From assembly GCA_964577555.1 (NCBI GenBank), contig CAZNZM010000011.1, forward strand, positions 1-31,063: a stretch of 31,063 nucleotides of DNA, in the 5' to 3' direction. How positions within the stretch are numbered: position 1 is the first letter of the stretch; the number at the start of each line of letters is the position of its first letter. This document shows positions 1,600 through 26,234 of this stretch, one piece after another. Origin of the DNA: an uncultured archaeon. Its GTDB lineage: Archaea > Iainarchaeota > Iainarchaeia > Iainarchaeales > Iainarchaeaceae. Under the pieces are notes generated by a model. The model was not told the origin of the DNA and did no database searches. It worked only from the letters and a program-made list of their open reading frames with translations. A program made the translations under genes and the position numbers.

Positions 1600-1644
1600 G
1601 TTTTTTGCCTAATGTTTTGTTTTAAGTTTGTTCTTGTGTAATCC

Positions 1645-1652
1645 TTTAAATT
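1645..1652 (+). promoter_or_regulatory. TATA-like box (TTTAAATT) 23 nt upstream of the alaS ATG
   Basis: The 8-mer tttaaatt lies at 1645-1652, followed by exactly 23 nt before the ATG at 1676. The same spacing recurs at several other genes in the window. Confidence 0.5.
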
Positions 1653-1675
1653 TGTTTTCTGGTGTTTTTTATTTT

Positions 1676-4186
1676 ATGTTTTCTGACAAGGAAATAAAAG
1701 CAAAGTATAAAGAAAAGGCTAGCTTGGAACCTGAAAAAAATTATCCTGTCCGCAAACTTAAAGAGCATGGTTTTTTTAGGCTAAAGTGTCAAAATTGTGG
1801 CAAGTTTTTTTGGAGCTTGGATTTTGATAGAAAGTTTTGCGGCGATTCTGCTTGTGTTGGGGGTTATTCCTTTATTGGCAATCCGCCTTCAAAAAAGAGT
1901 TTTGACTATTTGGAAACATGGAGTGCCTTCAAAGGCTATTTTAAAAGGTTGGGTTATTTTGAGTATAAGCGTTATCCTGTTGTTGCACGTTGGCGTCCTG
2001 ATGTTTATTGGGTTGCGGCTTCTATTTATCCTTTTCAACCTTATGTTGTTAAGGGCGAGATAAAGCCTAAGAGCAATGCTGTTATTATTCCACAACTTTC
2101 TTTGCGTTTTAATGATATTGACAATGTTGGCATTACTGGTTCACATTATGTTTGTTTTGACATGCTTGGGCAATTGCGTTTTGAAAAAGCGGTTGATTAT
2201 GATATTGAAGAGTATTGGGAACAGTACTTTGGTTGGATTGTTGATGGAATGTGTATTCCGGAGAATGAATTGGTTATTCATGAGGACGCTTGGGCTGGCG
2301 GTGGAACTTTTGGGCCTTGCATGGAGTTTTTTTCAAGAGGCATGGAAATAGGTAATCAAGTTTATATGCAATATGAACAAACAGAAAGCGGTTCTAAGGA
2401 ATTGAATATCAAGGTTTTGGATATGGGGCAAGGGCATGAGCGCGTGCCTTGGCTTACTAGTGGCAAATCTAATTCTTATGAAACCACTTTTCCAAGTGTT
2501 GCAAAAAAATTGTATAATATTACAGGCTATAAGCCTGATGATTATTTGATGCAAAGGTTTTTGCCTTATTCAGCGCTTTTGAATGTTGATGAAGCTGAGA
2601 ATATTGAAAAGGTTTGGATTAGGATTGCAAGTGATTTGAAAATTGATGTTAAGGAGTTGAAGGAAAAAATTCTTGCTTTGGCTGCTTTGTATAGTGTTGG
2701 CGAACATTCGCGTGCAGCTTTGGTTGCTTTGAATGATAATGCTTTGCCTTCTAATGTTGGCGGCGGTTATAATCTTCGTATAATTTTGCGTAGGGCGTTA
2801 GGTTTTATTGATGATTATGGCTGGAAAATCGAGTTATGCGATTTGGCTGAAGAGCATGCCAAATTTTTGAAGCCTATGTACCCTGAATTGTCTGAAAAGC
2901 TTGAGAATGTTTCGTTGATTTTGGAGAATGAGAAAAAAAAATTTTTTGAAGCAAGGAAAAGAGCTAGGCAAATAATTGAAACTGAGTTGAAGGCCAAACC
3001 AGATGTTGATTTGCTTGTCTATTTGTATGATAGTCATGGCATTAGGCCTGAAGAAGTAAGAAAGGTAGCTGCTGAAAAGGGGATAAGTGTTGTAGTTCCT
3101 GAAAACTTTTATGCTAAAGTTTCAGAGATTCATGAAAAAAAAGTTCAGGCTACTGAAACTAAAAAGCCTTTTTTCTTGGACGTTTCAAATGTGCCTGAAA
3201 CAAAAATTTTGTATTATGGCGATTGGAAGTTTTTGGAGTTTGATGCAAAGGTCGTGTTTAGCCACGAAAATTTGATTGCTTTGGACCAAACTGCTTTTTA
3301 TCCTACTTCTGGAGGTCAATTGCATGATGTTGGAGAAATAAGCGGTGTTAAGGTTTTGGATGTTTTCAAACATGGTTCAGTTATTTTGCACAAGGTTGAT
3401 TTAAATAAATTTAAGGTAGGTGATGCAGTGCATGGGGTAGTTGATTTTGAACGAAGAAAACAGTTAATGCAGCATCATACTTCTGCTCATTTGGTTAATC
3501 TTTGTGCTGCTGAAGTTCTGGGGTCGCATGTTTGGCAGGCTGGAGCCGCAAAGACTTTGGAAAAAGGCAGACTTGATATAACTCATTATGAACAAATTTC
3601 TTCTGAACAATTGAAGGCAATTGAAAAATGTTGTAATGACAAGATTATAGCTGGCTTGGTTGTTAAAAAGGAGATTTTGCCAAGGGAAGAGGCTGAGGAA
3701 AAGTATGGCATGCATATTTATCAAGGCGGTTTTGTGCCTGGCAGAAATTTAAGGATTGTTACAATTGGTTCTGATGTTGAAGCTTGTGGCGGTACTCATG
3801 CAAATAATCTTTCTGAATTGGAATGTTTAAAGATTTTGAATTCTGTTAAGGTTCAAGATGGAGTGATAAGAATTAATTATGTTTCTGGCGATGCTGCGAA
3901 AAAGGAAAAAACGAATTCTGCGGAGCTTCTCAAGCAAATTTCTGGTTTGTTTGGTGTAAAGCCTTCTCAGGTTCCTGCAAGGGCTGAAGAGCTTTTTATG
4001 AAGTGGAAAGCCGCCAAGAAAGCTCGGGCTAAAGGTGAAAAACCTGATGTAATTTTAAGAAGCTTGGAGGAGTTTAATGGTTCTGATGAGGAAATTCTTG
4101 CAAAAGCCGCAAAAACTTTTTCTACTTTGCCTGAACACTTGCCGCGTACTTTGAAAAGGTTTTTGGAAGAACTTGAAAATGGTTGA
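1676..4186 (+). CDS. alaS: Alanyl-tRNA synthetase, archaeal type
   Basis: N-terminal CQNCGKFFWS...FCGDSACVGGYSFIG element typical of archaeal AlaRS. Class II core. Editing-domain motifs HHTSAH and CGGTHA. The ATG at 1676 (MFSDKEIK...) is preferred over the TTG at 1628 because of the TATA spacing. The tail after CGGTH is only about 128 aa. Confidence 0.93.
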   Translation: MFSDKEIKAKYKEKASLEPEKNYPVRKLKEHGFFRLKCQNCGKFFWSLDFDRKFCGDSACVGGYSFIGNPPSKKSFDYLETWSAFKGYFKRLGYFEYKRYPVVARWRPDVYWVAASIYPFQPYVVKGEIKPKSNAVIIPQLSLRFNDIDNVGITGSHYVCFDMLGQLRFEKAVDYDIEEYWEQYFGWIVDGMCIPENELVIHEDAWAGGGTFGPCMEFFSRGMEIGNQVYMQYEQTESGSKELNIKVLDMGQGHERVPWLTSGKSNSYETTFPSVAKKLYNITGYKPDDYLMQRFLPYSALLNVDEAENIEKVWIRIASDLKIDVKELKEKILALAALYSVGEHSRAALVALNDNALPSNVGGGYNLRIILRRALGFIDDYGWKIELCDLAEEHAKFLKPMYPELSEKLENVSLILENEKKKFFEARKRARQIIETELKAKPDVDLLVYLYDSHGIRPEEVRKVAAEKGISVVVPENFYAKVSEIHEKKVQATETKKPFFLDVSNVPETKILYYGDWKFLEFDAKVVFSHENLIALDQTAFYPTSGGQLHDVGEISGVKVLDVFKHGSVILHKVDLNKFKVGDAVHGVVDFERRKQLMQHHTSAHLVNLCAAEVLGSHVWQAGAAKTLEKGRLDITHYEQISSEQLKAIEKCCNDKIIAGLVVKKEILPREEAEEKYGMHIYQGGFVPGRNLRIVTIGSDVEACGGTHANNLSELECLKILNSVKVQDGVIRINYVSGDAAKKEKTNSAELLKQISGLFGVKPSQVPARAEELFMKWKAAKKARAKGEKPDVILRSLEEFNGSDEEILAKAAKTFSTLPEHLPRTLKRFLEELENG

Positions 4187-4187
4187 A

Positions 4188-4209
4188 TTTTTTGTTTGTG
4201 CTTTTTTTT
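4188..4209 (+). terminator. Oligo-T tracts downstream of alaS (archaeal-type terminator candidate)
   Basis: A T6 run at 4188-4193 and a T8 run at 4202-4209 lie immediately after the TGA stop at 4184-4186. Confidence 0.45.
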
Positions 4210-4220
4210 GATTAAATAGA

Positions 4221-4228
4221 TTTTAAAA
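4221..4228 (+). promoter_or_regulatory. TATA-like box (TTTTAAAA) 23 nt upstream of the leuS ATG
   Basis: ttttaaaa lies at 4221-4228, followed by 23 nt before the ATG at 4252. Confidence 0.5.
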
Positions 4229-4251
4229 TTCTTTTAATAAACTATTTTTCC

Positions 4252-7095
4252 ATGGCAATTGATTTTTCATTAATAGAGCGTAAATGGATAGATCGGTGGG
4301 ACAAGGAAAAAGTTTTTGAAGCAAATCCAGATTCAAGGCCTAAATTTTTCGTGAATTTTCCTTATCCTTATATGAATTCTTTGATGCATATTGGGCATTT
4401 CTATACTCTTATGAGAGTTGAAGCCATGGCGAGATATAAGCGTATGCGTGGCTATAATGTTTTGTTTCCTCAGGCATGGCATTGTACTGGCAGCCCTATT
4501 GAAAATGCGGCACAGCGAATAAGAGAAAACGAGCCAAAGCAAATTGAAATTATGAGGCAACTCGGTTTTGATGATGCCCTTATCAAAGAATTTGCCGATC
4601 CAAAAAAATGGGTAGAGTATTTTCCAAAGGAAGCTGAAAAGGACCTTAAGGCTTTGGGTATGAGTATTGACTGGCGAAGAAGTTTTATCACCACTTCTTT
4701 GAATCCTTATTATGACAAGTTCATAAAATGGCAGTTCAACAAGTTGAAAGAGAAAGGTTATGTGGTTACTGGCAAGCATCCTGTTGTTTGGTGCATCAAG
4801 GACAATTCGCCTGTGCCTGATCATTCCAGAATTGAAGGGGAAGGCGAGACTCCGCAGGATTTCATGTGGATTAAATTCAGGGTAAAAAATAGCGATTGGA
4901 TAATAATGGCTGGTACTACTAGGCCTGATGCGCTTTATGGACAATCCAATTTGTGGGTTGATCCTGTTGGAGAATATTGTTTGGTTGAAGTTGGCGGAGA
5001 AAAGTGGGTGGTTGGTAAAAAGGTTTTGAGCAAAATTGAGCATCAATACATGGAATTCAAATTCATTCGTGATGTTAAACCAGAAGAATTGATTGGAAAA
5101 TGGGTTAAGGGTCCTTTGGTGGATTGTGAATTGGTGGTTTTGCCTGCTGGTTTTATTGATTCTTCTGTTGGTTCCGGGATTGTTTATTCTGCACTTGAAG
5201 ACCCTGTTGATCTTTTTGAATTGAAAGCAATTCAAAGTTCAGATGAGTTGTTGTCAAAATACAAGCTTGACAAAGATTATGTGAAAAAGTTGAAGCCTAT
5301 TGATATAATCAGTGTTCCTGGAATGGGTTCTAATTTGGGGGAACAAATTAGTAAGGAGTTTGGGGTAAAGTCTTCGGCTGACAGAGGTTTATTAGAAGAG
5401 GCTAAGCGAGAATTGAATAGAAGGGTTTTCAGGAAGGGTGTCATGCTTGGAAACTGCGGCTTTTGTGCAGGGCTTTCCGTTCCAGAAGCCCAAGCCGTGC
5501 TTAAAAAATTTCTTGTCAAAAATAATGATGCTGTAATGTTTTACGAGCTTTCAGGCAAAGTTGTTTGCCGTTGCCTTAGTGAAGCAATTGTAAAAGTTGT
5601 GAGCGACCAGTGGTTCATAAAATATAGTGATGCTGATTGGAAGGCTGAAGCAAGGGAAGCCCTTCGAAACATAAAATTGTATCCTGAATCGGCAAGACAG
5701 CAATTTGAGTATGTCATAAATTGGTTGAATGATTGGCCTTGTACGAGAGAATTTGGACTTGGGACAAACTTGCCTTGGGATGAAAAGTGGGTTATTGAGA
5801 GTTTGAGCGATTCAACAATTTACATGGCATTTTATACCATTTCGCATAAATTGAAATCTATTCCGATTGACAAGTTGAATTATGCCTTTTTTGATTATGT
5901 TTTTTTAGGCAAGGAATCTGACAAATTGTTGGTTTCAAAAAATATTTGTGATGATATAAGGAGTGAATTTGAATATTGGTATCCAGTGGATTTCAGAAAT
6001 TCTGGCAAAGACCTTATTCAAAATCACTTGACTTTTTTTATTTTCAATCATGTGGCTATTTGGCGTGACAAGTCCAAGCATCCTAAAGGGATTGGAGTTA
6101 ATGGTTGGATAACAGTCAATGGGGAAAAAATGTCAAAATCAAAAGGCAATTTTATTTTGTTGCGCGATTTGCCTGTAAAGTATGGTTGTGACGCTTCGCG
6201 TTTTACTGTACTTTCAGGTGGTGAAGGAATTGACGATGCCAATTTTGAATTGTCTTTGGCTGAATCGATGAAATCCAAGCTTTCTGATTGGCTTGTTCAA
6301 ATAATTGAATTGAGAAAAAAATGTGTTGAAGAAGAAGGAAGGCAAATTGATGTTTGGTTTGAATCTGAAGTGAATGAAATTATTTCTGAAGTCACGGCTT
6401 GCATGGACGAAGCCATGTTCAAAACAGCTTTGAAGCTTTCGTTTTTTGAAATGCAAAGGGTGTTAAAGTGGTATTTGTACAGGTCTGCCGGCAAGCCAAA
6501 CAAAAGGCTTTTGAATTGGGCTTTGCGTTCTCAAGCATTGATGCTTGCTCCTGTTTGTCCTTTTATTGCTGAAGAAGCCTGGGAATTTTTGGGTGAAAAA
6601 GGTTTTATTTGCAAGGCTGGTTGGCCAAAACCTGATTTTTCAAAAATTTCCGCCAAAGCCAAGCAAAGTGAAGAACTTGTAAAAAATACTATAAATGATA
6701 TAAAGCAGATAAAGGAATTGACAGGAATTTCAAATCCTAAAAAGATAACTATTTATGTTGCGCCGCAATGGAAATGGAGAGCAATGAGAATAGTTGTAGA
6801 AGTTTGTGCAAAAAAGCCAGACTATGGTTCTTTAATTAAAGCATTAATGTCTGATTCTGAAATAAGGATAAAAGGCAAGCTTGTTGAAGCTTTTGCAAAA
6901 CAGGCTTTTAAAGTTGCAAAGGATTTTAATTTGGAACACTCAATTGACGAGTTTGAACTATTTTCTAGCAATAAGGATTTTTTTTCCACTGAATTTGGTT
7001 GCACTGTTGAAATTGTAACACCTAAAAAAGACGATTTAAGTTCAACCAAATCCGCAAAAGCATTTCCAGGCAAGCCAGCTATTTTTATTGAATGA
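4252..7095 (+). CDS. leuS: Leucyl-tRNA synthetase, archaeal/eukaryal type
   Basis: Class I motifs HIGH (NSLMHIGHFYT) and KMSKS (GEKMSKSKGN). PYPYMN...RYKRMRGYNVLFPQAWHCTGSPI resembles archaeal LeuRS. The 947-aa length fits the archaeal form. Confidence 0.93.
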   Translation: MAIDFSLIERKWIDRWDKEKVFEANPDSRPKFFVNFPYPYMNSLMHIGHFYTLMRVEAMARYKRMRGYNVLFPQAWHCTGSPIENAAQRIRENEPKQIEIMRQLGFDDALIKEFADPKKWVEYFPKEAEKDLKALGMSIDWRRSFITTSLNPYYDKFIKWQFNKLKEKGYVVTGKHPVVWCIKDNSPVPDHSRIEGEGETPQDFMWIKFRVKNSDWIIMAGTTRPDALYGQSNLWVDPVGEYCLVEVGGEKWVVGKKVLSKIEHQYMEFKFIRDVKPEELIGKWVKGPLVDCELVVLPAGFIDSSVGSGIVYSALEDPVDLFELKAIQSSDELLSKYKLDKDYVKKLKPIDIISVPGMGSNLGEQISKEFGVKSSADRGLLEEAKRELNRRVFRKGVMLGNCGFCAGLSVPEAQAVLKKFLVKNNDAVMFYELSGKVVCRCLSEAIVKVVSDQWFIKYSDADWKAEAREALRNIKLYPESARQQFEYVINWLNDWPCTREFGLGTNLPWDEKWVIESLSDSTIYMAFYTISHKLKSIPIDKLNYAFFDYVFLGKESDKLLVSKNICDDIRSEFEYWYPVDFRNSGKDLIQNHLTFFIFNHVAIWRDKSKHPKGIGVNGWITVNGEKMSKSKGNFILLRDLPVKYGCDASRFTVLSGGEGIDDANFELSLAESMKSKLSDWLVQIIELRKKCVEEEGRQIDVWFESEVNEIISEVTACMDEAMFKTALKLSFFEMQRVLKWYLYRSAGKPNKRLLNWALRSQALMLAPVCPFIAEEAWEFLGEKGFICKAGWPKPDFSKISAKAKQSEELVKNTINDIKQIKELTGISNPKKITIYVAPQWKWRAMRIVVEVCAKKPDYGSLIKALMSDSEIRIKGKLVEAFAKQAFKVAKDFNLEHSIDEFELFSSNKDFFSTEFGCTVEIVTPKKDDLSSTKSAKAFPGKPAIFIE

Positions 7096-7120: not shown

Positions 7121-8806
7121 TCAAGTCAAATAATGGACATTTACTTCTATTGTTTCTTTCATTGATTTTATTTGCTTTATTGCTCTTTCGAGATTTGTGC
7201 CTTTTTTTGTCTTAACTATGAATTCAGTATAGCCCGTCTTTCCATCTTCGTTGACTTTGGTTATTCCTGTTTCTATGTTAAAGCCGTTTTTATACATTAT
7301 CTTTGCTTGCTTCATTATCAACCCGGGCTTGTCGGTGCTGTCTATCCTTATTTTAGCAAGCCCTTCAGATTGTTTCGGAGATATGATTTTTTTAAGTGTT
7401 TTTTCTATGTCTCGCCTGACTTTTTCAGATGATGCCAAAGACAACCAGCTTATTTGGACTTCTGGTTTTGGCGAATAAATTATTTTTATTCTGTCTCCTG
7501 GATTTAGTTTTGTCCAAAGGGGAAGCATTTTGCCGTTAATATTGGCTTTTGATGCGTGCTCGGCTTTTTTTCCATAAGCAAAATATGCGAAATCTATTGC
7601 AGTTGATTGCTGCGGAATTTCAACTGTCTCGCCTTTTTCCGTAAATACAATCATTGACTTGTTGTCAAAATCTAAACTCAGGGTGTTTGCAACTTCCTTG
7701 ATGTCATTGAATTTTTCTTTTTTTACTTTTGAAAACATTTTTTTGAATTTTTTCATAAATTTTACTTCATCCTTGTTTTTTAGCAGGGCTATTACGCCGT
7801 CAACTCCCAACAAGTGCATTTTTTCTGATTGAATGTATATTTTTATAGGTTTTTTTGAAGGCCCGATTATTTGAGTATGTAAAGCTTGGTATATTGAGTA
7901 TTGTGGTATTGCAATCAAATCCTTGAATTTTCCTGGAATTGGTTTAAAGGTTTCATGTATTTTTCCTAAAGCATTGTAACAACTTTCCTTATCATCAACG
8001 ATAACCTGCATTATTGCTATATCGTTTATTTCTTCAAGCTCTTTGCCTTTGGCAACCATTTTGGAGTGAATGGAGTACAACGATTTGCGTGTAATGTCAA
8101 ATTCCCAATTCATTTTTGGAAACTCGTGTTTCAAAATTTTAATTGCGTTTTTTATTTCTTCACATTTTTCATTCAATAAAGGCTTGATTTTTGTTTTGAT
8201 TTTTTTATAATTTTTTGGCTCGAGTGTTTTGAAGCAAAGGTCTTCCATTTCATATTTTATTGAATGTATTCCCATTCTGTGGGCTATTGGGACATAAACT
8301 ATCAAAGCATCGGCCGCTATTCTTATTTGCTTTTCAGGTTTAAGGTATTCAATTGTTTTAAGGTTGTGCAACTTGTCAAAAAGCTTTATTACCAAAACTC
8401 TTATGTCTTTTGCAGATGCTATTATTGTTTTTATTATATTTGCTGTTGTGTGTTCTTTTCTTGAATTGAACGAGATTATGTCAAGTTTTGTCAATGATTT
8501 GACTAAAGAAAAAATCTCGTTTCCAAAAATGGTTTTGAGCTTTTTTTCATCAGTTTTGGTGTCTTCAAGGACATCATGAAGCAATGCAACCGAAACCATT
8601 ACTTCATCCAACCCTTTTTCAGCAACCATTTTTGCTACTTGAAAAAGGTGGGTAAAATAAGGGTCTCCAGAGGCCCTGTATTGTCCTTGGTGGGCTTTTT
8701 TTGAAAAATAGTAAGCTTCTTCCACAAGGCTCAATTTTGCGTTTGGATTGTGCTTGGCAACTATTGATTTAAGTTTATTCAAATCACGTTCTTCAATTTT
8801 TTTCAT
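7121..8806 (-). CDS. Long RSH (RelA/SpoT homolog): HD hydrolase, RelA/SpoT synthetase-like, TGS and ACT domains; compact 561-aa form
   Basis: HD hydrolase motifs RASGDPYFTHLFQVA, LLHDVLEDT, KLFDKLHNLKT. Synthetase-fold motifs TRKSLYSIHSKM, FKDLIAIPQYSIYQALHT, PIKIYIQSEKMH. TGS region MIVFTEKGETVEIP...NGKMLPLWTKLNPGDRIKII. C-terminal ACT-like region AKIRIDSTDKPGLIMKQAKIM... Confidence 0.85.
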   Translation of the reverse strand: MKKIEERDLNKLKSIVAKHNPNAKLSLVEEAYYFSKKAHQGQYRASGDPYFTHLFQVAKMVAEKGLDEVMVSVALLHDVLEDTKTDEKKLKTIFGNEIFSLVKSLTKLDIISFNSRKEHTTANIIKTIIASAKDIRVLVIKLFDKLHNLKTIEYLKPEKQIRIAADALIVYVPIAHRMGIHSIKYEMEDLCFKTLEPKNYKKIKTKIKPLLNEKCEEIKNAIKILKHEFPKMNWEFDITRKSLYSIHSKMVAKGKELEEINDIAIMQVIVDDKESCYNALGKIHETFKPIPGKFKDLIAIPQYSIYQALHTQIIGPSKKPIKIYIQSEKMHLLGVDGVIALLKNKDEVKFMKKFKKMFSKVKKEKFNDIKEVANTLSLDFDNKSMIVFTEKGETVEIPQQSTAIDFAYFAYGKKAEHASKANINGKMLPLWTKLNPGDRIKIIYSPKPEVQISWLSLASSEKVRRDIEKTLKKIISPKQSEGLAKIRIDSTDKPGLIMKQAKIMYKNGFNIETGITKVNEDGKTGYTEFIVKTKKGTNLERAIKQIKSMKETIEVNVHYLT

Positions 8807-8887
8807 AGAAATAAAATTATTCAGTAATCAATTTATTAACTTCTTTTATTTTTTATCATTGTGATCAAAATTTGTTTTCTCGTATAA

Positions 8888-15906: not shown

Positions 15907-16461
15907 TTAATTGTTTTTCCTTGCTTTTTCATTTATTAAACTCACTTTATTAAGAAATTGTTTGAATGATTCTGCAAATTCTTCTTCAAGTTTTTTAGAA
16001 ATTTTTCCAGAACGCAAAAACGATGCTAACTCAAGCATAGTGTTCCTGTAATTTTCAAATCCTGGGCTTGCAAGCAGCTTGTGAAATGTTTCAAGTAAAT
16101 AAACAGCATCTTCATGACAACTTTCACTTGCCCAACTATTTTTGGAACATTCGACAAACATTTTCTCTATTTCTTCAACGTTTTTTGAAAGTTGAACAAA
16201 GTTTTCCTTTCCAATTTTTGTTATTTTGTATATTTTTCTTTTTCTGCCTTTATATTCTTCATGCTTTATTTCAATCAATCCATCTTTCTTAAGGGAACTG
16301 AGAGCCGGATATAATGAACCTGCTTTTGGTTTCCATAATCCCATGCTGTTTTTTTCAATTTTTTTCATTAATGAATAACCATGCAACGGTTCTTCTATAA
16401 GCGACTTGAGAATCAAATACTTTAATTCGCCTTTGAAAAAAAAATGAGGCTTTATCATCAT
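15907..16461 (-). CDS. padR: PadR-family transcriptional regulator
   Basis: Winged-helix pattern LKYLILKSLIEEPLHGYSLMKKIE...AGSLYPALSSLKKDGLIE...RKRKIYKITKIGKE. The start overlaps the stop of the upstream permease gene by 4 nt (ATGA). Confidence 0.85.
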   Translation of the reverse strand: MMIKPHFFFKGELKYLILKSLIEEPLHGYSLMKKIEKNSMGLWKPKAGSLYPALSSLKKDGLIEIKHEEYKGRKRKIYKITKIGKENFVQLSKNVEEIEKMFVECSKNSWASESCHEDAVYLLETFHKLLASPGFENYRNTMLELASFLRSGKISKKLEEEFAESFKQFLNKVSLINEKARKNN

Positions 16462-17687
16462 TCAGGTCCCCGCAATGCTTCCACAGGATCAAGAGATGCA
16501 GCTCTATTGGCCGGCAATGCTCCTGCAACCATTCCAATAATCATTGAAAAAAGCAATGAACCGACAATTAAAAACGGGTCTAATTCTACTATTAGTGCAA
16601 ACCCTGAAATATTTGCTACATATCCTATAAAAAATGCCAATACATAACCTATTATTACGCCTATGATTCCGCCTGCCAATCCTATAAAACCTGCTTCAAG
16701 AACAAATATTGAAAGCACAAGGTTGTTTGTTGCTCCGACAGCCTTCATTACTCCTATTTCTTTTGTCCTTTCCATGACTGCCATGAACATAGTGTTCATT
16801 ATTCCTATGCTGCCAACCAAAAGTGATATGCTTGCTATTCCAACCAAAAACAATTGAATTACTCCTAAAACTTGGCCTATTCTTTCAATTACTTGTTCGC
16901 TTGTAATTGTTTGGAATTCTTTTTGGTTTTTTCCGTAATCTTTTTCAAATATTTTGTCTATTTTTTCTTTTGCAACAGAAATGTCTTCCTTTTTTTTGAT
17001 TTTTATTAATGCAAATACTGGTTCAATGTTTGGAAATATTTCCTTGAATGTTTTTTTTGAGATAAATATGCTGTTGTTTGTGTTTGGGCCCCCTCCAAAA
17101 CTTGTACTGGTTTTCTTTGTAACACCAATTACTCTGAATGATTTGCCTTGTATTTCTATTCTATCCCTAAGCCTTATTTCTTTTGAAAATATGTCTTTTT
17201 GCACTGTTGGCCCTATTATCGCCACAAATCCATCGCTTGTTTGTATGTTTCTGCCTTCTTCTATTTCCAAAAAACCTATGTCTTCAAAACTTTCTGCTTC
17301 TTTTGAATCAGCTGCAAACACAGGTATTTTGGCAACATCTTTTCCGAATTTGACGGTTCCGTTGCCCGAAATTGGAGTGATTACACTTTCCACTTCAGGT
17401 ATTGCTTTTATTTTTTGAATTTGGCTGTCTTTCAACCCTGTTATGTTTGTTGCTACTCTTTGATTGTTGCCGCCACCTATAGATGCTGTGCCAGGCGCAA
17501 GAAATATTGTATTTGAACCAAGTTGTTCAAATTGTTTATTTACTGCATTATTTAAGCCGCTTCCAAGGGAAACAAGGGTTACAATGGCAGCTACTCCTAT
17601 TATTACACCTATTAGAGTAAGTGCACTGCGCAACCCTTGTCTTGAAAGATTTTTTAGTGACACTTGAGCTATTTCAATTATATTCAT
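16458..17687 (-). CDS. ABC transporter permease, MacB/FtsX type
   Basis: N-terminal TM LRSALTLIGVIIGVAAIVTLVSLG. A large extracytoplasmic domain of about 230 aa. C-terminal FtsX-like three-TM bundle (...ERTKEIGVMKAVGATNNLVLSIFVLEAGFIGLAGG...PANRAASLDPVEALR). Confidence 0.88.
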   Translation of the reverse strand: MNIIEIAQVSLKNLSRQGLRSALTLIGVIIGVAAIVTLVSLGSGLNNAVNKQFEQLGSNTIFLAPGTASIGGGNNQRVATNITGLKDSQIQKIKAIPEVESVITPISGNGTVKFGKDVAKIPVFAADSKEAESFEDIGFLEIEEGRNIQTSDGFVAIIGPTVQKDIFSKEIRLRDRIEIQGKSFRVIGVTKKTSTSFGGGPNTNNSIFISKKTFKEIFPNIEPVFALIKIKKKEDISVAKEKIDKIFEKDYGKNQKEFQTITSEQVIERIGQVLGVIQLFLVGIASISLLVGSIGIMNTMFMAVMERTKEIGVMKAVGATNNLVLSIFVLEAGFIGLAGGIIGVIIGYVLAFFIGYVANISGFALIVELDPFLIVGSLLFSMIIGMVAGALPANRAASLDPVEALRGPE

Positions 17688-17709
17688 GTTTTTGTAACCT
17701 CGTTACTAT

Positions 17710-18939
17710 TTATTGGTTGTTTTTCTTTTTTCTTATTACAAACCAATAGATTAATGCCAAAACAACTAATACTATTGCTATAAGTATTAGTGAAAATCCT
17801 TCGTTAGAATTTTTTGCTGCTTCTTCAGGAGTATATACTCTTACTTTAATCGTTTTTTCCACGCTTGAAACGTCTCCAAATTGATTTTTGTAAGTTATTT
17901 GCAGGTTAATGTTGTGTTCTCCGGGAGAAATATTTTTGTTTGCCAGAACTTCCATTTTTATCGTATCCGAATCGTCTGATTCCAATGAACCTATATAGAA
18001 TTCTCTGGTAATCATTGAATCAAAATCTGGCTTTACTTTTATATCCAAATATTTTGCAGCACCTAAACCTGAATTGAATACATTAATTGTTATTGCTGAT
18101 TTTTGGCCAGGCGATAACAAAGGTTTGATGTCTGTAATGCTGGCACCTATTTCAGCATTGCTTATGACTTTTAATCCCAAATATTGCGTATCAGACAATT
18201 TTGTTTTGTTAAAGTCAAAATAATCAATTTTGATTGGTATAAAATAGGCTTTTGACGGCGCATCGGGATTTATTAGAACTGGAATTTTGATTATTTTTGA
18301 TTCATTCGGTTCAAGCAATTGGATACTTGACGTTGCTGAACCCATTGGAACAATGTTTCTTTCTATTACGATTCCTGAAGAAGTCACAGTTCTGTCCTCA
18401 GTAATTCCAATATTTATATTATATGCAGTGCTGCTTCCTGTATTTTTCAAAGAAATAACTAAATCAGTTATTTTTCCAACTTCTGCAGAAATTGGTTCTG
18501 CTTTTTCTATAATTAGCAAAGGCTTTCTATTTTGAATACTGATTGAATAAGGCATTGACCTTTCTATAATTCCGTTTTCTCCTGTTTGGAGTTTTATTTT
18601 GTATGTTCCGTCAGGTGCCTGTGGATCAATTTTTAACCTTGATTTGACAATTGATGATTGGTTTGGTTTTATTGTTCCTATTTTTTTGATTTCAAGGTTT
18701 TCAGGAATAACATTGAATGGAAATTCCGAATTAGAATCATCTTGCTTTAAGTCAATTGAGAAAACCGTGTCTTTTGAATCAGTATTTGAATTGTTGTTTA
18801 TGTGAACAAAAATATCTATATATCCGCCAGGCATTGCAGGGGCTGGAGAATAACTTACTGTCCCGATAATTGGGTTTCCTGCAAAGGCTGTTGATGCCAA
18901 CGCCATTGCAAAAATTATTGTTATTAATTGATTTTTCAT
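17710..18939 (-). CDS. Surface-anchored protein with three Ig-like/CARDB-like repeats (COG1361 'S-layer domain'-like), with signal peptide and C-terminal TM anchor
   Basis: Signal peptide MKNQLITIIFAMALASTAFA. Three beta-sandwich-like repeats, each ending in a pattern such as APDGTYKIKL, APSKAYFIPIKI or SPGEHNINLQI. C-terminal anchor LILIAIVLVVLALIYWFVIRKKK. The start overlaps the ATPase stop by 4 nt (ATGA). Confidence 0.75.
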   Translation of the reverse strand: MKNQLITIIFAMALASTAFAGNPIIGTVSYSPAPAMPGGYIDIFVHINNNSNTDSKDTVFSIDLKQDDSNSEFPFNVIPENLEIKKIGTIKPNQSSIVKSRLKIDPQAPDGTYKIKLQTGENGIIERSMPYSISIQNRKPLLIIEKAEPISAEVGKITDLVISLKNTGSSTAYNINIGITEDRTVTSSGIVIERNIVPMGSATSSIQLLEPNESKIIKIPVLINPDAPSKAYFIPIKIDYFDFNKTKLSDTQYLGLKVISNAEIGASITDIKPLLSPGQKSAITINVFNSGLGAAKYLDIKVKPDFDSMITREFYIGSLESDDSDTIKMEVLANKNISPGEHNINLQITYKNQFGDVSSVEKTIKVRVYTPEEAAKNSNEGFSLILIAIVLVVLALIYWFVIRKKKNNQ

Positions 18940-19670
18940 TTATAGTCCCTCCTAATGAATTTTTTTGGTTTTTGTTTTGTTTCTTCTTTTTCTATTTGTC
19001 CATCTTTGATACGTATAATTCGTTCAGCCCTTTCGGCAACATAATTCTCGTGCGTGACAACCAATATTGTCTTGCCTTGTTCAGAGTGCAATTTGTCAAG
19101 AATTTCAAGTATTGTTGCTCCTGACTTTGAATCCAAGTTGCCTGTTGGTTCGTCTGCAACTATTATGTCAGGATTAACTGCCAAGGCTCTTGCAATCGCA
19201 ACTCTTTGCCTTTGCCCTCCGGAAAGTTCATATGGTTTGTGGTTCAATCTGTTGCCCAAACCTATGTCCGCAAGTATTTTTGAGGCAGTTTCAATTCTTT
19301 TTCTTTCAGGTATTCCTTGAAACCACATTGGAAGCATTACATTTTCAATTGCCGACAGCTTGTTTATTAATTCAAAGTTTTGGAATACAAAGCCTATTGT
19401 TTTGCCTCTTACAATCGCCAATTTTGAATCATTCATTTTTGATATGGGTTTACCACGTATAAATACTTCCCCTTTGGTTGGCCTTAGCAATGCGCTTAAC
19501 ACATCAAGCAAAGTTGTTTTTCCAGAACCGCTTGGCCCTGTTATTGAAACATATTCGCCATTATAAATTTTCAGGTTTATATCTCTAAGTGCTGTTATGT
19601 CGGTATCCCCCATTTTGTATATTTTATAAACACCTCTTGCTTCTATTATCGGAACTTTGTCAGTTTGCAT
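18936..19670 (-). CDS. ABC transporter ATP-binding protein, MacB/LolD-like
   Basis: Walker A GPSGSGKTT, signature LSGGQRQRVAIARAL, Walker B IIVADEPTGNLD, H-loop VVTHE. The ATG at 19670 (MQTDKVPIIE...) is preferred over the TTG at 19688. Confidence 0.92.
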   Translation of the reverse strand: MQTDKVPIIEARGVYKIYKMGDTDITALRDINLKIYNGEYVSITGPSGSGKTTLLDVLSALLRPTKGEVFIRGKPISKMNDSKLAIVRGKTIGFVFQNFELINKLSAIENVMLPMWFQGIPERKRIETASKILADIGLGNRLNHKPYELSGGQRQRVAIARALAVNPDIIVADEPTGNLDSKSGATILEILDKLHSEQGKTILVVTHENYVAERAERIIRIKDGQIEKEETKQKPKKFIRRDYK

Positions 19671-19723
19671 ATAAAACACAAAAAACAATATACAAGATTA
19701 GATATATAGGATAAGATATATTT

Positions 19724-19757: not shown

Positions 19758-19867
19758 CGCGGGGGACGAGATTCGAACTCGCGCTCCCTTTCGGGAACCT
19801 GGTGGCTTTTCCGCTTTAAAATAACAGAGCTCAAGCCAGGCGCATTTGACCTCTCTGCCACCCCCGC
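19758..19867 (-). tRNA. tRNA-Ser(UGA), class II, with a 26-nt intron at position 37/38
   Basis: Acceptor GCGGGGG/CCCCCGC, discriminator G, D stem GCA/TGC, anticodon stem CCTGG/CCAGG, loop CT-TGA-G|intron|A (anticodon 19831-19833, intron 19804-19829), variable arm TTCCCGAAAGGGAGC, T arm GCGAG-TTCGAAT-CTCGT. BHB-like: bulges AGC and CCA, a central helix CTT(G)/(A)AAG with one G.A mismatch, and a 6-bp inner helix. Confidence 0.88.
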
Positions 19868-19989: not shown

Positions 19990-20643
19990 TCAAAGTATTT
20001 TTTTGAGTTCTTTTATTGCGCCACAAACCCCTTTTTTGTATTTGAATATAAATGAGCCAGCCACAAGTATTTCAGCCCCGGCTTGAACACACTTTTTTCC
20101 TGTTTCAAGATTAATGCCGCCATCCACTTCTATTTCGCAATTAGCCTCTATTTCGTCTATTTTTCTGCGCAATTTGGAAATTTTTTCCAATGAATTTCCT
20201 TGAAACTTTTGCCCGCCAAAACCGGCGTCAACACTCATAACCAAAGCCAAGTCAACATTATCCAATAAATCGTATATTTTTTCTGGCTGTGTTTTGCTGT
20301 TTATTGCAACACCCGGACTTAAACCTTCCATTCTTATTTTTTTTATTGTTTCTAAAGGGTTTTTTGCGGCTTCAACATGAAAAATCAATCTTTGCACTCC
20401 TTTTTCTGCAAATTCTTTTATGCGATTTTCTGGCTTTTCAACCATCAAATGGGCTTCAAAATAAATTTTTGTTCTCTTCCTCAACATGGAAATCAAATCA
20501 GCAGGAACTCCATTATTTGGAACAAATTTGTTGTCCATTATGTCCCATTGTATTATGTCAGCCCTTGCTTTTTCTATTTCAGGAAGCCATTCGACATGTT
20601 TTGAAAAATCCGCGTTAAGAACAGACACAGCTATTTTTGGCAT
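19990..20643 (-). CDS. rpe: Ribulose-phosphate 3-epimerase
   Basis: Motifs VSVLNADF, WDIMDNKFVPN, EAHLMV, MSVDAGFGGQKF, EVDGGIN, LVAGSFIF match the Rpe TIM-barrel family. Confidence 0.88.
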   Translation of the reverse strand: MPKIAVSVLNADFSKHVEWLPEIEKARADIIQWDIMDNKFVPNNGVPADLISMLRKRTKIYFEAHLMVEKPENRIKEFAEKGVQRLIFHVEAAKNPLETIKKIRMEGLSPGVAINSKTQPEKIYDLLDNVDLALVMSVDAGFGGQKFQGNSLEKISKLRRKIDEIEANCEIEVDGGINLETGKKCVQAGAEILVAGSFIFKYKKGVCGAIKELKKIL

Positions 20644-20789
20644 TAAATTAAATTTATTGGATGGATTATTAATGTTTTCCGGTTTTGCCGTTTGCAGAAA
20701 AATTATTTTTACTTATAAACCTGTTTGCTGATACAATACAATTAAATATTAAAATAAATTAAAATTAATAAAAAAAAACAGACAAAAAA

Positions 20790-21110
20790 ATGGTTGAAAT
20801 GAAACCCCCAAAAAAATTCAGGTTTTGAGTGCTTGGTTATATAAAGAGTAATAACAAGTCTCCCCCTAAAACATTTATAATAACTCATACAAATCCACAA
20901 ACAACTGAAGAAGCCAACGAAATGATAAAGGAATTCGCCGAGAAGAGTAGAAAACCTGGAATAAACACTAGGATAATTGTAATACATTTTAAAGATGGTG
21001 ATTTTGCTTTAGATTTGCGAGACTTAAACCATTTAGTTGAAATTTTGAATAAACACGGAGTTGAAATTAAACCTGGCAAAGAAAGGTTCCCAACAAAAAA
21101 GAAAAAATAA
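20790..21110 (+). pseudogene. Small A-rich ORF interrupted by an in-frame TGA (12-codon ATG-initiated leader plus 93-codon ORF); possible pseudogene or orphan
   Basis: The ATG at 20790 has a TATA-like TTAAAATT 23 nt upstream. An in-frame TGA lies at 20826-20828, and the ORF then continues to 21110 (…KTFIITHTNPQTTEEANEMIKEFAEKSRKPG…). I recognised no family. TTA-biased Leu codons are unlike the neighbouring genes. Confidence 0.3.
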
Positions 21111-21180
21111 TTTGTAAATTAATGGATTCAAAAACAATTCAAACTTAACAATAAAAACATATATGTTTTTTGTTTTTATC

Positions 21181-22584
21181 ATGGATGAAAAAATTGTTTT
21201 TTCGGAAAAATTGAATGGAGCCATACAAGTAGAGTTTATTTGGGAAGGTGAAAATAAGCCTGTTCAAAATCTTCCTGAAAATTTCATGGGAAAAAAGCTT
21301 GAAACTATTTATTTGCCTGACAAAAAAATATTTGTGGCCGGGCTTGGTAAGAGAGATGAGTTTAATGAGGACTATTATAGAAGGATTGCTGGCAAGGCTG
21401 TTAAAACCGCTTCTTATTACAAGGTTGAAAGCGTGTATTTTAACCTTAAAGAATTGAACGAGAGAAATTGTGTTCTTGTGGCTGAAGGCGCGTTGCTTGC
21501 GAATTATTCGTTTGACAAGTACAAGTCAGATGACTCGAAGTTTTTCAAAATAAAGCAAATTGTATTTCCTAAAAATGCTGAAAAATTCAAATCAGCAATT
21601 GATGCCAAGGCAATTGTATGTGAAAATACTTTGTTTGTAAGAGACCTTGTAAGCGATAATAGCGATGTGGTTACTCCTGATTTTCTTGAAGAAAAGGCTG
21701 TTGAGGTTTCCAAAAAACTCGGCTTGAAGTTTCGTGCCTTGCACAAGAAAGAATTGGAAAGCATTGGAATGAATTGTTTGCTTGCCGTGGGAAAAGCTTC
21801 AACCCAATCTCCAAGGTTGATTATTTTGGAGTATAATGGGGACAAGAATTCTAAAGACAGGTTTTTGTTTGTTGGAAAGGGAATTTGCTTTGATACTGGC
21901 GGATTGGATATAAAGCCGCGTGATTCAATGCTTGAAATGCGCATGGATATGGCTGGTGCCGCAACAGTGCTTGCGATTGTTAAAAGTGCAGCAGAGCTTG
22001 GTTTGAAAAAAAATATTGTTGGTTTGATGGCGGTTACGGAAAATTTGGTGGATGCCAATTCTTACAGGCCAAAAGATATAATCAAGTCATTTTCAGGAAA
22101 AACAATTGAAAATTTTGATACCGACGCTGAAGGCAGGCTCATATTGGCCGATGCCTTGAATTATGGCGTCAAGGAGTTTGATCCAAAAATTGTTGTTGAA
22201 TTGTCAACCCTAACTGGTTCAATCATAGGAACGCTTGGCCAACATTGCGCCGGCATGTTTGCAAATTCGCAAGCAACAAGTTTTAAAGAAAAAATGTTCA
22301 AAGCAGGCATGGAAACTTATGAGAGGGTTTGGGAGCTTCCTTTGTTTGAGGAATACCTTGATGAGACGATTGGTGAAAGATCAGATATAAGGTCTCTTGG
22401 CAAAACAAGATATAACGGAGCTATTTTTGGCGGGGCTTTTCTTTCAAAATTTGTTGAAAACAAGCCGTTCATACATCTTGATATTGCAGGCACCGCCCAC
22501 ATTGACGAACCAAAGGATTATGTTCCAAAAGATGGAACCGGTTTTGGAGTAAGGCTTTGCATAGAGTTTTTGAATAAGGTATAA
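21181..22584 (+). CDS. pepA: Leucyl aminopeptidase, M17 family
   Basis: VGKGICFDTGGLDIKP, MRMDMAGAA and the M17 signature NFDTDAEGRLILADAL. The ATG at 21181 (MDEKIVF...) is preferred over the upstream ATG at 21163. Confidence 0.9.
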   Translation: MDEKIVFSEKLNGAIQVEFIWEGENKPVQNLPENFMGKKLETIYLPDKKIFVAGLGKRDEFNEDYYRRIAGKAVKTASYYKVESVYFNLKELNERNCVLVAEGALLANYSFDKYKSDDSKFFKIKQIVFPKNAEKFKSAIDAKAIVCENTLFVRDLVSDNSDVVTPDFLEEKAVEVSKKLGLKFRALHKKELESIGMNCLLAVGKASTQSPRLIILEYNGDKNSKDRFLFVGKGICFDTGGLDIKPRDSMLEMRMDMAGAATVLAIVKSAAELGLKKNIVGLMAVTENLVDANSYRPKDIIKSFSGKTIENFDTDAEGRLILADALNYGVKEFDPKIVVELSTLTGSIIGTLGQHCAGMFANSQATSFKEKMFKAGMETYERVWELPLFEEYLDETIGERSDIRSLGKTRYNGAIFGGAFLSKFVENKPFIHLDIAGTAHIDEPKDYVPKDGTGFGVRLCIEFLNKV

Positions 22585-22619
22585 GATTCCAAAAAATATT
22601 CAAAATCTTTTTTGCATTT

Positions 22620-24038
22620 TTATAATCCTTGAACCATATTCTCTATTTTGTTGAACCATTCGCGTCCGTCTTTTTCAATCAATTCGTTAGCTTCTTTCGG
22701 ACCAAACGAACCTTTTTCATATACATGAATTGGTTTTTTCAATGATATTGCTTGGTCTATTAACCTCCATGATTCCTCAATTTCATCGGCTCGCATAAAG
22801 GCGCTTTGATCACCTTTAAGCACGTCAAGCAAAAGTGTTTCATATGCCTTTGGAGTATTTGGGCCAAAAGTGCATTCATGGCAAAAAGTCATTTTTACCG
22901 GCAAAATTTTATTTTTTTGTCCTGGCATTTTGCTGTTCAATTGCAATAAAATCCCGTCTTCAGGTTGTATTTGGATAAGAAGATAATTTGGTTTTATGTT
23001 TTGTCCTTCAAAAACGTTATAATCGGGCTCCTTGAATTGGATATAAATTGAAGAAAATTTTTTGGCAAGATTTTTTCCAGAACGAAGATAGAATGGCACT
23101 CCTTTCCATCGATTGTTGTTGATAAAAAGCTTTAATGCAAAAAAAGTATCTGTCTTGGAAAAAGGGTTAACTCCTTTTTCATCCAAATATCCTTGATATT
23201 GTCCTAACACTAAATCTTCTTTTTTTATTTTTGATATTGAACGCAACACCTTGACTTTTGAATCCCTGATGCATTTCTCGTCAAATCTTTTTGGTGGCTC
23301 CATAGCAATAAGTGCAAGCAATTGTAAAAGGTGGCTTTGGCCAACATCTTTCAATGAGCCTTCTTTATCATAAAATTCTCCTCTGGTTTCAACTCCAAAA
23401 TCTTCTATAAGATTTATCTGTACATGGTCTATGTTGTCTTTATTCCACAATGGAGCAAATATTCGATTGCATGCCCGCAAAACACTTATGCTTTGCACTA
23501 ATTCCTTGCCAAGATAATGATCTATCCTGTAAATCTGGTTTTCATCAAACGCTTTTGATATTTTGGAATTAAGGAGTCTCGCTGTTTTCAAGTCTTCGCC
23601 AAAAGGCTTTTCAAATACTACTCTGCACCAACCGTTTGTTTCAGCAAGCCTTTTTTCCTTCAAATTTTTGGCTATGTTTTCAAAGTGTTGCGGCAAAGTT
23701 GCAAGATAAAAAAGCCTATTTGAGGATAGTTTGGATTTCTTTTCAACGTCTTCAATGAAATCTTTCAAATCAATATAACCATGGCTGTCTTCAAAATCAA
23801 GCGAAAAGTAATGTATTTTACTGCTAAACGACCGCCAATTCTCCTCGCTAATTTTAATTTTTTCGCGAATACCTTCAACAAATTCTTCCCGACCTATTTT
23901 TCTTCTACCAACTCCTATAATGCAAAAATTTTCTCCAAATTCTTTTCTATGATAAAGCCCATACATTGCCGGAAAAAGCTTTTTTTGAGCAAGGTCCCCA
24001 GTGGAACCCATGATTATAAAAGAAAAATCATTTTGCAT
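22620..24038 (-). CDS. zwf: Glucose-6-phosphate 1-dehydrogenase
   Basis: N-terminal dinucleotide motif IIMGSTGDLAQKKLFPAMY, EKPFG, and active-site motif RIDHYLGKE. The start (ATG 24038) overlaps the end of pgl. Confidence 0.92.
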   Translation of the reverse strand: MQNDFSFIIMGSTGDLAQKKLFPAMYGLYHRKEFGENFCIIGVGRRKIGREEFVEGIREKIKISEENWRSFSSKIHYFSLDFEDSHGYIDLKDFIEDVEKKSKLSSNRLFYLATLPQHFENIAKNLKEKRLAETNGWCRVVFEKPFGEDLKTARLLNSKISKAFDENQIYRIDHYLGKELVQSISVLRACNRIFAPLWNKDNIDHVQINLIEDFGVETRGEFYDKEGSLKDVGQSHLLQLLALIAMEPPKRFDEKCIRDSKVKVLRSISKIKKEDLVLGQYQGYLDEKGVNPFSKTDTFFALKLFINNNRWKGVPFYLRSGKNLAKKFSSIYIQFKEPDYNVFEGQNIKPNYLLIQIQPEDGILLQLNSKMPGQKNKILPVKMTFCHECTFGPNTPKAYETLLLDVLKGDQSAFMRADEIEESWRLIDQAISLKKPIHVYEKGSFGPKEANELIEKDGREWFNKIENMVQGL

Positions 24039-24702: not shown

Positions 24703-24790
24703 AACAAAATTGAGCCATATTTTTTTATAAAACAAAGAGAAAAGCAAAAATTCATTTTATTGAAGTTTTTAATTTGACAAAATAACAAAA

Positions 24791-25252: not shown

Positions 25253-25304
25253 GAAAATTAGCACGACAAAAACAAATTTATTTATTTGGTTTTCAAAAAA
25301 AAAA

Positions 25305-26207: not shown

Positions 26208-26234
26208 AAAAACCACTTGAATAATTATTGAAAA

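Follow-up and report, generated by a model that had tools for sequence, protein, structure and literature searches.

A compact long RSH of Diapherotrites archaea with an intact hydrolase site and a conserved but putatively inactive synthetase domain

The 31,063-nt contig CAZNZM010000011.1 of an uncultured archaeon (assembly GCA_964577555.1), referred to below in its whole length as the window, encodes on its reverse strand a compact long RelA/SpoT homologue (RSH) of 561 amino acids (aa; open reading frame 7121..8806 (-), ATG start), in which an HD hydrolase domain, a synthetase-like domain (SYNTH), a TGS domain and an ACT domain follow each other. The protein is probably a monofunctional alarmone 3'-pyrophosphohydrolase of Rel ancestry, in which a pseudo-SYNTH domain would be kept as an allosteric or scaffolding element and TGS and ACT as regulators, ribosome-coupled synthesis having been deleted. 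An earlier interpretation of the same DNA, here called the sequence-only reading, had delimited exactly this frame and this domain order, and had proposed either a hydrolase-only alarmone scavenger or a tRNA-sensing regulator; the former now appears to be the best-supported function.

Pfam matches were obtained for HD_4 at aa 31-180 (8267..8716 (-); 1.8e-34, 119 bits against a cut-off of 27.2), RelA_SpoT at aa 241-346 (7769..8086 (-); 1.2e-21, 77.5 bits against 27) and TGS at aa 385-443 (7478..7654 (-); 1.8e-8, 34.8 bits against 22.2). The Pfam models ACT_4 and ACT_AHAS_ss aligned with aa 484-555 below their gathering score (21.6-21.8 versus 27 bits); both were above cut-off in P0023 and P0048, two members of the compact archaeal clade described further on. 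In an AlphaFold (AF2) model built from 26 clade sequences (pLDDT 82.4, pTM 0.63), aa 482-560 (7127..7363 (-)) adopted the beta-alpha-beta-beta-alpha-beta ACT fold with confidence (pLDDT 84-92) and included the canonical D-K-P-G-L loop of this ACT/RRM-like domain. As HD and SYNTH are present in this order on one polypeptide and are followed by a C-terminal region with TGS and ACT/RRM, the protein belongs to the long RSH class. Its top match in the PDB was Rel from B. subtilis (6yxa, 2.9e-87), to which the AF2 model was also related by Foldseek (3.7e-29), and the N-terminal domain of the model superposed on Rel catalytic fragments with TM scores of 0.83-0.91 (0.91 for 7oiw, with a root-mean-square deviation of 2.2 A, and 0.88 for 1vj7). 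The NCBIfam model TIGR00691 (spoT_relA) scored 436.8 bits, under its cut-off of 499.2, and was covered from position 1 to 452 of 687.

The helical and conserved-cysteine region, which had already seemed to be missing in the sequence-only reading, is indeed absent. In the reference Rel P0113, TGS (385-442) is followed by RelA_AH_RIS (458-627) and ACT (645-722), whereas the gap between TGS and ACT in the window protein amounts to ~40 aa with a single linker helix (aa 461-475; 7382..7426 (-), AF2 secondary structure), so that the deletion is real and comprises ~170 aa, made up of the helical domain (AH) and the zinc finger (RIS). Pfam detected neither PF19296 nor PF28438, that is, no AH or RIS/zinc-finger domain (ZFD), in the window protein. 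Full-length members of the compact clade displayed tails of 110-123 aa after TGS (143 in P0010), as compared to ~265-280 aa in full-length Rel.

Residues are numbered below according to B. subtilis Rel, on the basis of an HMMER alignment to 6yxa and a MAFFT alignment. The hydrolase set of bifunctional Rel ([HS] type), namely R44, H53, H77, D78, E81, D82, D144 and N148, was complete in the window protein, as the sequence-only reading had noticed, and in 63 out of 63 clade members. Only one of 52 HD positions conserved in at least 85 % of ordinary Rel proteins was replaced in the clade, by the conservative change R145K, and this was also the only clade-specific position of the domain.

The same HD domain also matched MESH1 and small alarmone hydrolases (SAHs), including the MESH1-NADPH complex 5vxa, and its substrate may be other than (p)ppGpp. 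If the host lacks an alarmone synthetase, the domain could act on another 3'- or 2'-phosphorylated nucleotide, for instance NADPH (as metazoan MESH1), on (p)ppApp, or on alarmones originating from bacterial neighbours, toxins or viruses. Such a role would agree with the fact that (p)ppGpp was undetected in any archaeon as of 2021 (PMC8646023) and with the neutralisation of toxSAS products by SAH enzymes (10.1101/575399). NADPH-producing pentose-phosphate enzymes are encoded in the window too, but 11-17 kb away from the RSH gene and unlinked to it in other loci; not being syntenic elsewhere, they were dropped as evidence. Every residue that the HD domains of (p)ppGpp-degrading Rel proteins have in common was kept, R145K was the sole clade-specific change, and the sequence gave no hint of an altered specificity; a different substrate is regarded as improbable.

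The synthetase site presented the opposite picture. In the window protein, E324 was replaced by K (Lys322 in its own numbering, codon 7841..7843 (-); the position corresponds to the catalytic Glu, E323 in RelSeq), Q326 by Y, R328 by Q, K304 by Q, N306 by S, R269 by Q and R241 by T, and the A-x-HW-x-Y motif was lost, so that the synthetase catalytic and substrate-binding set of bifunctional Rel is not preserved. These alignments bore out the substitutions that the sequence-only reading had derived by hand, including those of the Glu and R269; K243, K251, D264, the KxKD motif, Y308 and H312, which it had left unmentioned, were retained. With a conserved HD site and a SYNTH domain devoid of conserved catalytic sites, the protein corresponds to the [Hs] type as defined in PMC3153485. 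Position 324 was occupied by Lys in 59 of the 63 members of the compact clade, by Arg in two, by Gln in one and by Glu in one, whereas all 202 sequences of the set outside the clade displayed Glu, bar one full-length outlier; Tyr was found at position 326 in 76 % of the clade. Among positions conserved in at least 85 % of ordinary Rel, nine out of 47 were replaced in SYNTH (G240, R241, R269, E324, Q326, A341, H343, W344 and Y346) and one out of 18 in TGS. The RelA_SpoT score of the window protein came to roughly one half of the 142-147 bits obtained for intact proteins.

Despite being predicted dead, the domain was far from degenerate. Used alone, it still matched the SYNTH domains of Rel at ~1e-24, although it did not retrieve the structure of Acinetobacter SpoT[Hs]. 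Approximate dN/dS values, calculated according to Nei-Gojobori against the 86 %-identical orthologue in locus L084, were 0.062 for HD, 0.065 for SYNTH, 0.045 for TGS and 0.10 for ACT. As the value for SYNTH equals that for HD, the domain is best described as a putative pseudo-enzyme domain, conserved under strong purifying selection and not decaying, whose active site appears to have been remodelled in a targeted and fixed manner inside an otherwise maintained domain. The term "eroded", used in the sequence-only reading, does not fit such low values or the near-invariant Lys at position 324.

The same constraint might betray an enzyme that still synthesises. According to this alternative, the protein would have remained bifunctional, its non-canonical Lys322/Tyr324 site serving alarmone synthesis or the transfer of pyrophosphate from a nucleotide to a new acceptor. 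Purifying selection as strong as on HD, retention of the residues listed above and the fixed, non-random nature of the replacements would all be expected from it; the public names "bifunctional (p)ppGpp synthetase/hydrolase" and "GTP pyrophosphokinase" agree with it as well, but are automatic annotations only. It has to contend, however, with the loss of a Glu that did not vary among the ~200 ordinary long RSHs examined and that coordinates the catalytic Mg2+ in RelSeq, RelP and RelQ structures, with the concomitant loss of R241 and R269, with the disappearance of the modules by which ribosome and tRNA are sensed and synthesis is activated, and with the halved RelA_SpoT score. A retained synthetase activity is accordingly held to be quite unlikely.

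Some proteins combined these features differently. P0226, a full-length Rel-type protein of 725 aa located outside the compact clade, displayed K324, S243 and N264, residues which indicate a probable independent loss of synthetase activity. P0219 (590 aa) and P0266 (539 aa) had short tails and intact synthetase residues. From these three proteins it follows that compaction and inactivation are separable.

A third change affected TGS. In B. subtilis Rel, H420 (H432 in E. coli RelA) stacks on the CCA end of deacylated tRNA, and tRNA inhibits hydrolysis, an inhibition that is relieved by H420E (PMC7797070). This column was occupied by His in 200 of 202 ordinary Rel proteins and by N, D, S, E or Y in the compact clade, the window protein carrying Tyr411; the adjoining and otherwise invariant G424 was mostly replaced by Ala in the clade. 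The CCA-recognising histidine of bifunctional Rel is thus missing, which weakens the tRNA-sensing regulator of the sequence-only reading. With the catalytic Glu, AH/RIS and the CCA-reading His all lost, three components of ribosome- and tRNA-activated synthesis are gone. In B. subtilis Rel, removal of ZFD and RRM increased hydrolysis and compromised synthesis, D264G abolished synthesis and elevated hydrolysis, and the N-terminal domain alone was almost hydrolase-dead, the C-terminal region being needed for hydrolase activity (PMC7797070). Judged by these effects, every change seen here favours a hydrolase-on, synthetase-off state, which points to an enzyme that would be in that state and would still need part of its C-terminal region.

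A homologue search gathered 21 clusters with lengths of 558-590 aa and identities of 45-100 %, whose organism was given as "Candidatus Diapherotrites archaeon", "archaeon" or "uncultured archaeon", after which scores fell from 514 to 359 bits, where ~715-aa bacterial Rel proteins started. An exhaustive profile search of 1.84 billion representatives added ~40 compact representatives, the named ones being archaeal. A scan of a genome collection with the back-translated patterns ALLHD..ED and IKL.DKLH, which are universal in Rel, brought up bacterial Rel and no archaeal locus among the matches listed. One member, P0012, originated from GCA_000402355.1, a 2013-era assembly of the single-cell type. 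Sorting of 265 sequences by residue 324 and by tail length after TGS yielded 196 with Glu and a long tail, 62 with Lys, Arg or Gln and a short tail, six with Glu and a short tail (some of them fragments) and one with Lys and a long tail.

When HD, SYNTH and TGS were used to build a neighbour-joining (NJ) tree, those compact proteins in which residue 324 is replaced formed one clade of 63 sequences with a bootstrap value of 100/100, and all members with an organism name were archaeal. The loss of AH/RIS and the replacement of Glu by Lys therefore trace to one ancestor. Orthology with SpoT from gamma- and betaproteobacteria was not observed; the clade stood apart and its neighbours were DPANN-type and Rel-type proteins. 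The nearest group consisted of ~640-aa DPANN long RSHs, with a weak sister support of 11-38/100. A stepwise reduction from Rel through the ~640-aa DPANN form to the compact form, as drawn by the topology, is not claimed in view of these values.

The window belongs to a Diapherotrites (Iainarchaeia) lineage and is a genuinely archaeal contig. It encodes an archaeal-type alanyl-tRNA synthetase (AlaRS; 1628..4186 (+), TIGR03683 A-tRNA_syn_arch, 780 bits for a cut-off of 744.7) and an archaeal-type leucyl-tRNA synthetase (LeuRS; 4252..7095 (+), TIGR00395 leuS_arch, 950 bits for 648.5), the latter convergent with the RSH gene, and its tRNA-Arg(TCT) and tRNA-Ser(TGA) are interrupted after the anticodon by introns of 27 and 26 nt. 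The RSH gene followed the Leu codon preference of the rest of the window (TTG 18 and CTT 15 out of 45), as put forward in the sequence-only reading; its codon usage lay at a distance of 0.094 from the pooled usage (range 0.077-0.146) and its GC content was also typical. Orthologue contigs carried archaeal 23S rRNA (L086, L089) and archaeal RNase P RNA (L086, L089, L090), and the named relatives of the neighbouring arginyl-tRNA synthetase (ArgRS) were all from DPANN, Diapherotrites coming first (47-91 % identity) and Woesearchaeota and Nanoarchaeota next. These markers together account for the archaeal placement.

An assembly or binning artefact, with a bacterial gene on a chimeric contig, would agree with bacterial Rel proteins being the nearest relatives outside the clade. 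Identical protein and flanks were assembled from three independent samples, codon usage was native, the flanks contained archaeal-type AlaRS and LeuRS and intron-bearing tRNAs, and orthologues lay on contigs with archaeal RNAs, synteny around RSH being kept down to ~35 % identity. Chimerism and contamination were ruled out on these grounds, and the probability left to an artefact is negligible. As the sequence-only reading had it, a long RSH derivative of bacterial ancestry thus resides in an archaeal genome.

The favoured history and mechanism would be as follows. A bacterial bifunctional Rel would have been acquired by a DPANN archaeal ancestor and then inherited vertically in the Diapherotrites lineage. 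Its synthesis arm has been lost at three levels: the catalytic Glu, now Lys, together with the Arg and Gln that contact ATP and GDP; AH and RIS/zinc finger, through which Rel is docked on the ribosome; and the TGS histidine that reads the CCA end of uncharged tRNA. With an untouched HD active site, the enzyme is predicted to hydrolyse (p)ppGpp, and possibly (p)ppApp, in an Mn2+-dependent manner. The pseudo-synthetase, presumably folded and under selection, may keep the allosteric coupling between HD and SYNTH, and possibly nucleotide binding, since K243, K251, D264, KxKD, Y308 and H312 are retained. TGS and ACT are kept as well, and ACT could sense a small ligand.

Several points weigh against this explanation. 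These organisms have no known alarmone synthetase, although their genomes were not searched for one, and this is the weak point of all the readings considered here; the lack of detection of (p)ppGpp in archaea, mentioned above, adds to it. The conservation of SYNTH, in which D264 is kept and the former catalytic strand carries a near-invariant Lys and Tyr, could reflect an activity that was changed rather than lost. The dS between the two compared genes was ~0.85, near saturation, which is why the dN/dS values are approximate, and the phylogeny was of the NJ type only.

The ArgRS gene is located directly upstream of the RSH gene, in the same direction and at a distance of 81 nt (8888..10588 (-); NCBIfam argS, 409 bits), and is itself directly preceded by the tRNA-Arg(TCT) gene (10611..10712 (-)), which was missed by default ARAGORN and found by Rfam (tRNA, 53.8 bits) and intron-aware ARAGORN. 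ArgRS was followed by RSH in loci L081-L086, L089, L090 and L093-L096, and the order was reversed in L088. ArgRS or argininosuccinate lyase (ArgH) stood beside RSH in 10 out of 10 compact-clade loci sampled (~35-86 % identity), while the other flank varied. The sole sampled lineage without ArgRS, L091, displayed a co-directional ArgH gene 24 nt upstream (TIGR00838, 356 bits for a cut-off of 279.5). The arrangement of the window (tRNA-Arg, ArgRS and RSH, with LeuRS and AlaRS converging) was kept in orthologues at 86, 57, 46 and 45 % identity; LeuRS was syntenic in the clade A loci and AlaRS was adjacent or near in most loci. In the divergent subclades L093, L094, L095 and L096, ArgRS was directly upstream and the downstream genes differed (His genes, GDH/MgtE or AlaRS). 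The intact ~640-aa homologue was not found beside ArgRS. Since ArgRS is native to DPANN archaea, co-transfer of the pair was rejected as the cause of this adjacency. The linkage is striking but partly inherited synteny: ~15 kb are conserved within clade A and the loci are not independent observations.

An element resembling a TATA box, TTAATAAA, to which a promoter role may be ascribed, is located 25 nt upstream of the ATG of the RSH gene (8832..8839 (-)), where the sequence-only reading had placed it. A related box recurred at the same distance in L084, L086, L089 and L090. A/T octamers at -45..-16 were found in 18 of the 28 window genes, against a background of 30 %. The RSH gene probably has its own TATA box.

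Such linkage might suggest that the protein acts mainly by regulation and not as an enzyme, in connection with ArgRS, tRNA-Arg or the supply of arginine, with TGS and/or ACT as sensors and catalysis as a secondary matter. The constancy of the ArgRS or ArgH neighbour, the frequent presence of tRNA-Arg(TCT) upstream, a pairing that was not transferred as a block and the canonical ligand loop of ACT are in favour of it. Perfect conservation of the HD catalytic residues, however, speaks for catalysis, the CCA-reading histidine of TGS is lost, the conserved TATA-like box belongs to the RSH gene itself, and adjacency could merely be an inherited position among loci that share their synteny. This interpretation is deemed very unlikely.

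The alarmone hydrolase favoured here may be placed in a wider, more speculative setting, which is rather unlikely. An orphan hydrolase without its own synthetase would constitute a new archaeal signalling or defence module, in which the pseudo-SYNTH domain, with its Lys and Tyr, would be a nucleotide sensor gating HD; the enzyme would clear foreign alarmones, from bacterial neighbours, toxins or viruses, or act on another phosphorylated nucleotide. The adjacency of ArgRS or ArgH throughout the clade suggests that it would also be functionally coupled to ArgRS, to tRNA-Arg or to the supply of arginine.

Other features of these loci were recorded. Outside the window, tRNA-Arg(TCT) genes with an intron of 31-78 nt after the anticodon were found in L084 (4663-4768), L086 (7310-7420), L089 (3889-4041), L090 (5836-5986) and L093 (3204-3333). 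This tRNA lay at most ~0.6 kb upstream of ArgRS in the window, L084, L086 and L090, being directly adjacent in the window and L084; three genes intervened in L089, and in L093 it was ~2.9 kb upstream on the opposite strand. Locus L093 also contained two ECF-type sigma-70 family genes (3843-4427 (-), TIGR02937, 65 bits for a cut-off of 42.9; and 5086-5664 (-), 37.4 bits, below cut-off), which share their contig with the intron-bearing tRNA-Arg and the ArgRS-RSH pair; bacterial-type sigma factors are unexpected in DPANN. Between RSH and ArgRS in L088, intron-aware ARAGORN reported a "tRNA-Pyl(cta)" with a 161-nt intron (7822-8067 (+)), for which Rfam gave no tRNA and which is probably an artefact. 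Histidine-related genes flanked compact RSHs in L091 (4390-7976: HisRS, tRNA-His and HisG/HisD fragments) and L093 (9756-11041: HisI and HisG).

Further along the window, two tandem SPFH/Band_7 paralogues of 272 and 265 aa, with open reading frames overlapping by 4 nt, occupied positions 10877-12489 (+); a Band_7 gene was again found upstream of ArgRS in L084, L089 and L090. What looks like an export operon, syntenic in L081 and L084, lies at 15907-19688 (-): a PadR-family regulator gene comes first, and the genes after it encode a MacB/FtsX-type permease, a CARDB/NPCBM-domain protein and an ABC ATPase. The tRNA-Ser(TGA) gene with its 26-nt intron (19758-19867 (-)) is followed at 19990-27053 by genes for the oxidative pentose-phosphate branch (ribulose-phosphate 3-epimerase, glucose-6-phosphate dehydrogenase, 6-phosphogluconolactonase, 6-phosphogluconate dehydrogenase and a transaldolase/FSA-like gene). 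Archaea do not usually carry this branch, and its genes were probably acquired from bacteria as well. A Mn/Fe superoxide dismutase gene was located near them (27668-28276).

Compared to known systems, the window protein most resembles bifunctional Rel from Firmicutes and Actinobacteria (6yxa, 1vj7, 7oiw), with which it shares domain order, 33-36 % identity, the fold of the N-terminal domain and an identical hydrolase active site. It differs from them in its archaeal host, in being ~170 aa shorter for want of AH and RIS/zinc finger, in the Lys at Glu324, in the replacement of R241, R269, Q326 and A-x-HW-x-Y, and in the loss of His420. SpoT[Hs] from Moraxellaceae, such as A. baumannii SpoT (7qpr), likewise combines an active-looking HD with a retained non-catalytic SYNTH (PMC3153485), but was matched only distantly (7e-44 versus 2.9e-87 for Rel). 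Unlike the window protein, it has a full C-terminal region (701 aa) and coexists with an alarmone-making RelA; its SYNTH is highly divergent, whereas that of the archaeal protein still matches Rel (~1e-24) and is strongly constrained, and no partner synthetase is known for the archaeal protein.

The ~640-aa DPANN long RSHs (P0085, "RelA/SpoT family protein" from Candidatus Woesearchaeota archaeon) also have archaeal hosts, as seen in locus L092, whose contig carries Kae1 and a 23S rRNA of archaeal type, and a shortened C-terminal region. In contrast to the compact clade, they kept E324, Q326, R241, R269, H420 and the RIS zinc finger (PF28438, CCxP...H...C), and look bifunctional from their residues. 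SAHs and MESH1 share the HD fold and its catalytic residues with the window protein, and MESH1 is likewise a hydrolase in organisms without a known alarmone synthetase; they are single-domain proteins of ~180-200 aa, whereas the window protein additionally possesses pseudo-SYNTH, TGS and ACT.

Archaea were considered devoid of long RSHs by Atkinson et al. in 2011, who described the SpoT[Hs] proteins of Moraxellaceae as hydrolase-only long RSHs (PMC3153485). This premise, which the sequence-only reading had adopted, is outdated for DPANN: according to Li et al. in 2021, RelA/SpoT genes, for which a bacterial origin was inferred, occur in 69 % of the genomes of Diapherotrites, in 41.7 % of those of Woesearchaeota, in 21.3 % for Pacearchaeota and in 19 % for Nanoarchaeota (PMC8407392). 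The presence of RelA/SpoT in DPANN and the existence of hydrolase-only long RSHs in bacteria were thus already known, and such genes are common and reported in this lineage, though not characterised. The supplementary material of neither Jimmy et al. nor Li et al. contained anything on archaeal long RSHs, and the literature searched contained nothing on the catalytic state, the missing AH/RIS or the lost TGS histidine of these archaeal proteins, nor on a single origin of the compact form or its linkage to ArgRS. A SpoT-like gene was reportedly noticed by Rinke et al. as early as 2013 in Diapherotrites single-cell genomes, with which the assembly of origin of P0012 is consistent. Neither the compact, hydrolase-only form nor its constant place beside ArgRS appears to have been described before.

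The stringent response is commonly assigned to bacteria and plastids. Here, archaea would have long kept, under strong selection, only the degrading half of a stringent factor, which raises the questions of which substrate it degrades and who makes it, the same puzzle as that posed by MESH1 in animals. In public databases, proteins of the compact clade often go under the names "bifunctional (p)ppGpp synthetase/hydrolase" (P0130, P0146) or "GTP pyrophosphokinase" (the window protein among others); these annotations are probably wrong, and metabolic reconstructions that give Diapherotrites a stringent response need revisiting. The clade represents a natural minimal long RSH of ~560 aa without ribosome-binding modules, and could serve to study how SYNTH, TGS and ACT control the hydrolase.

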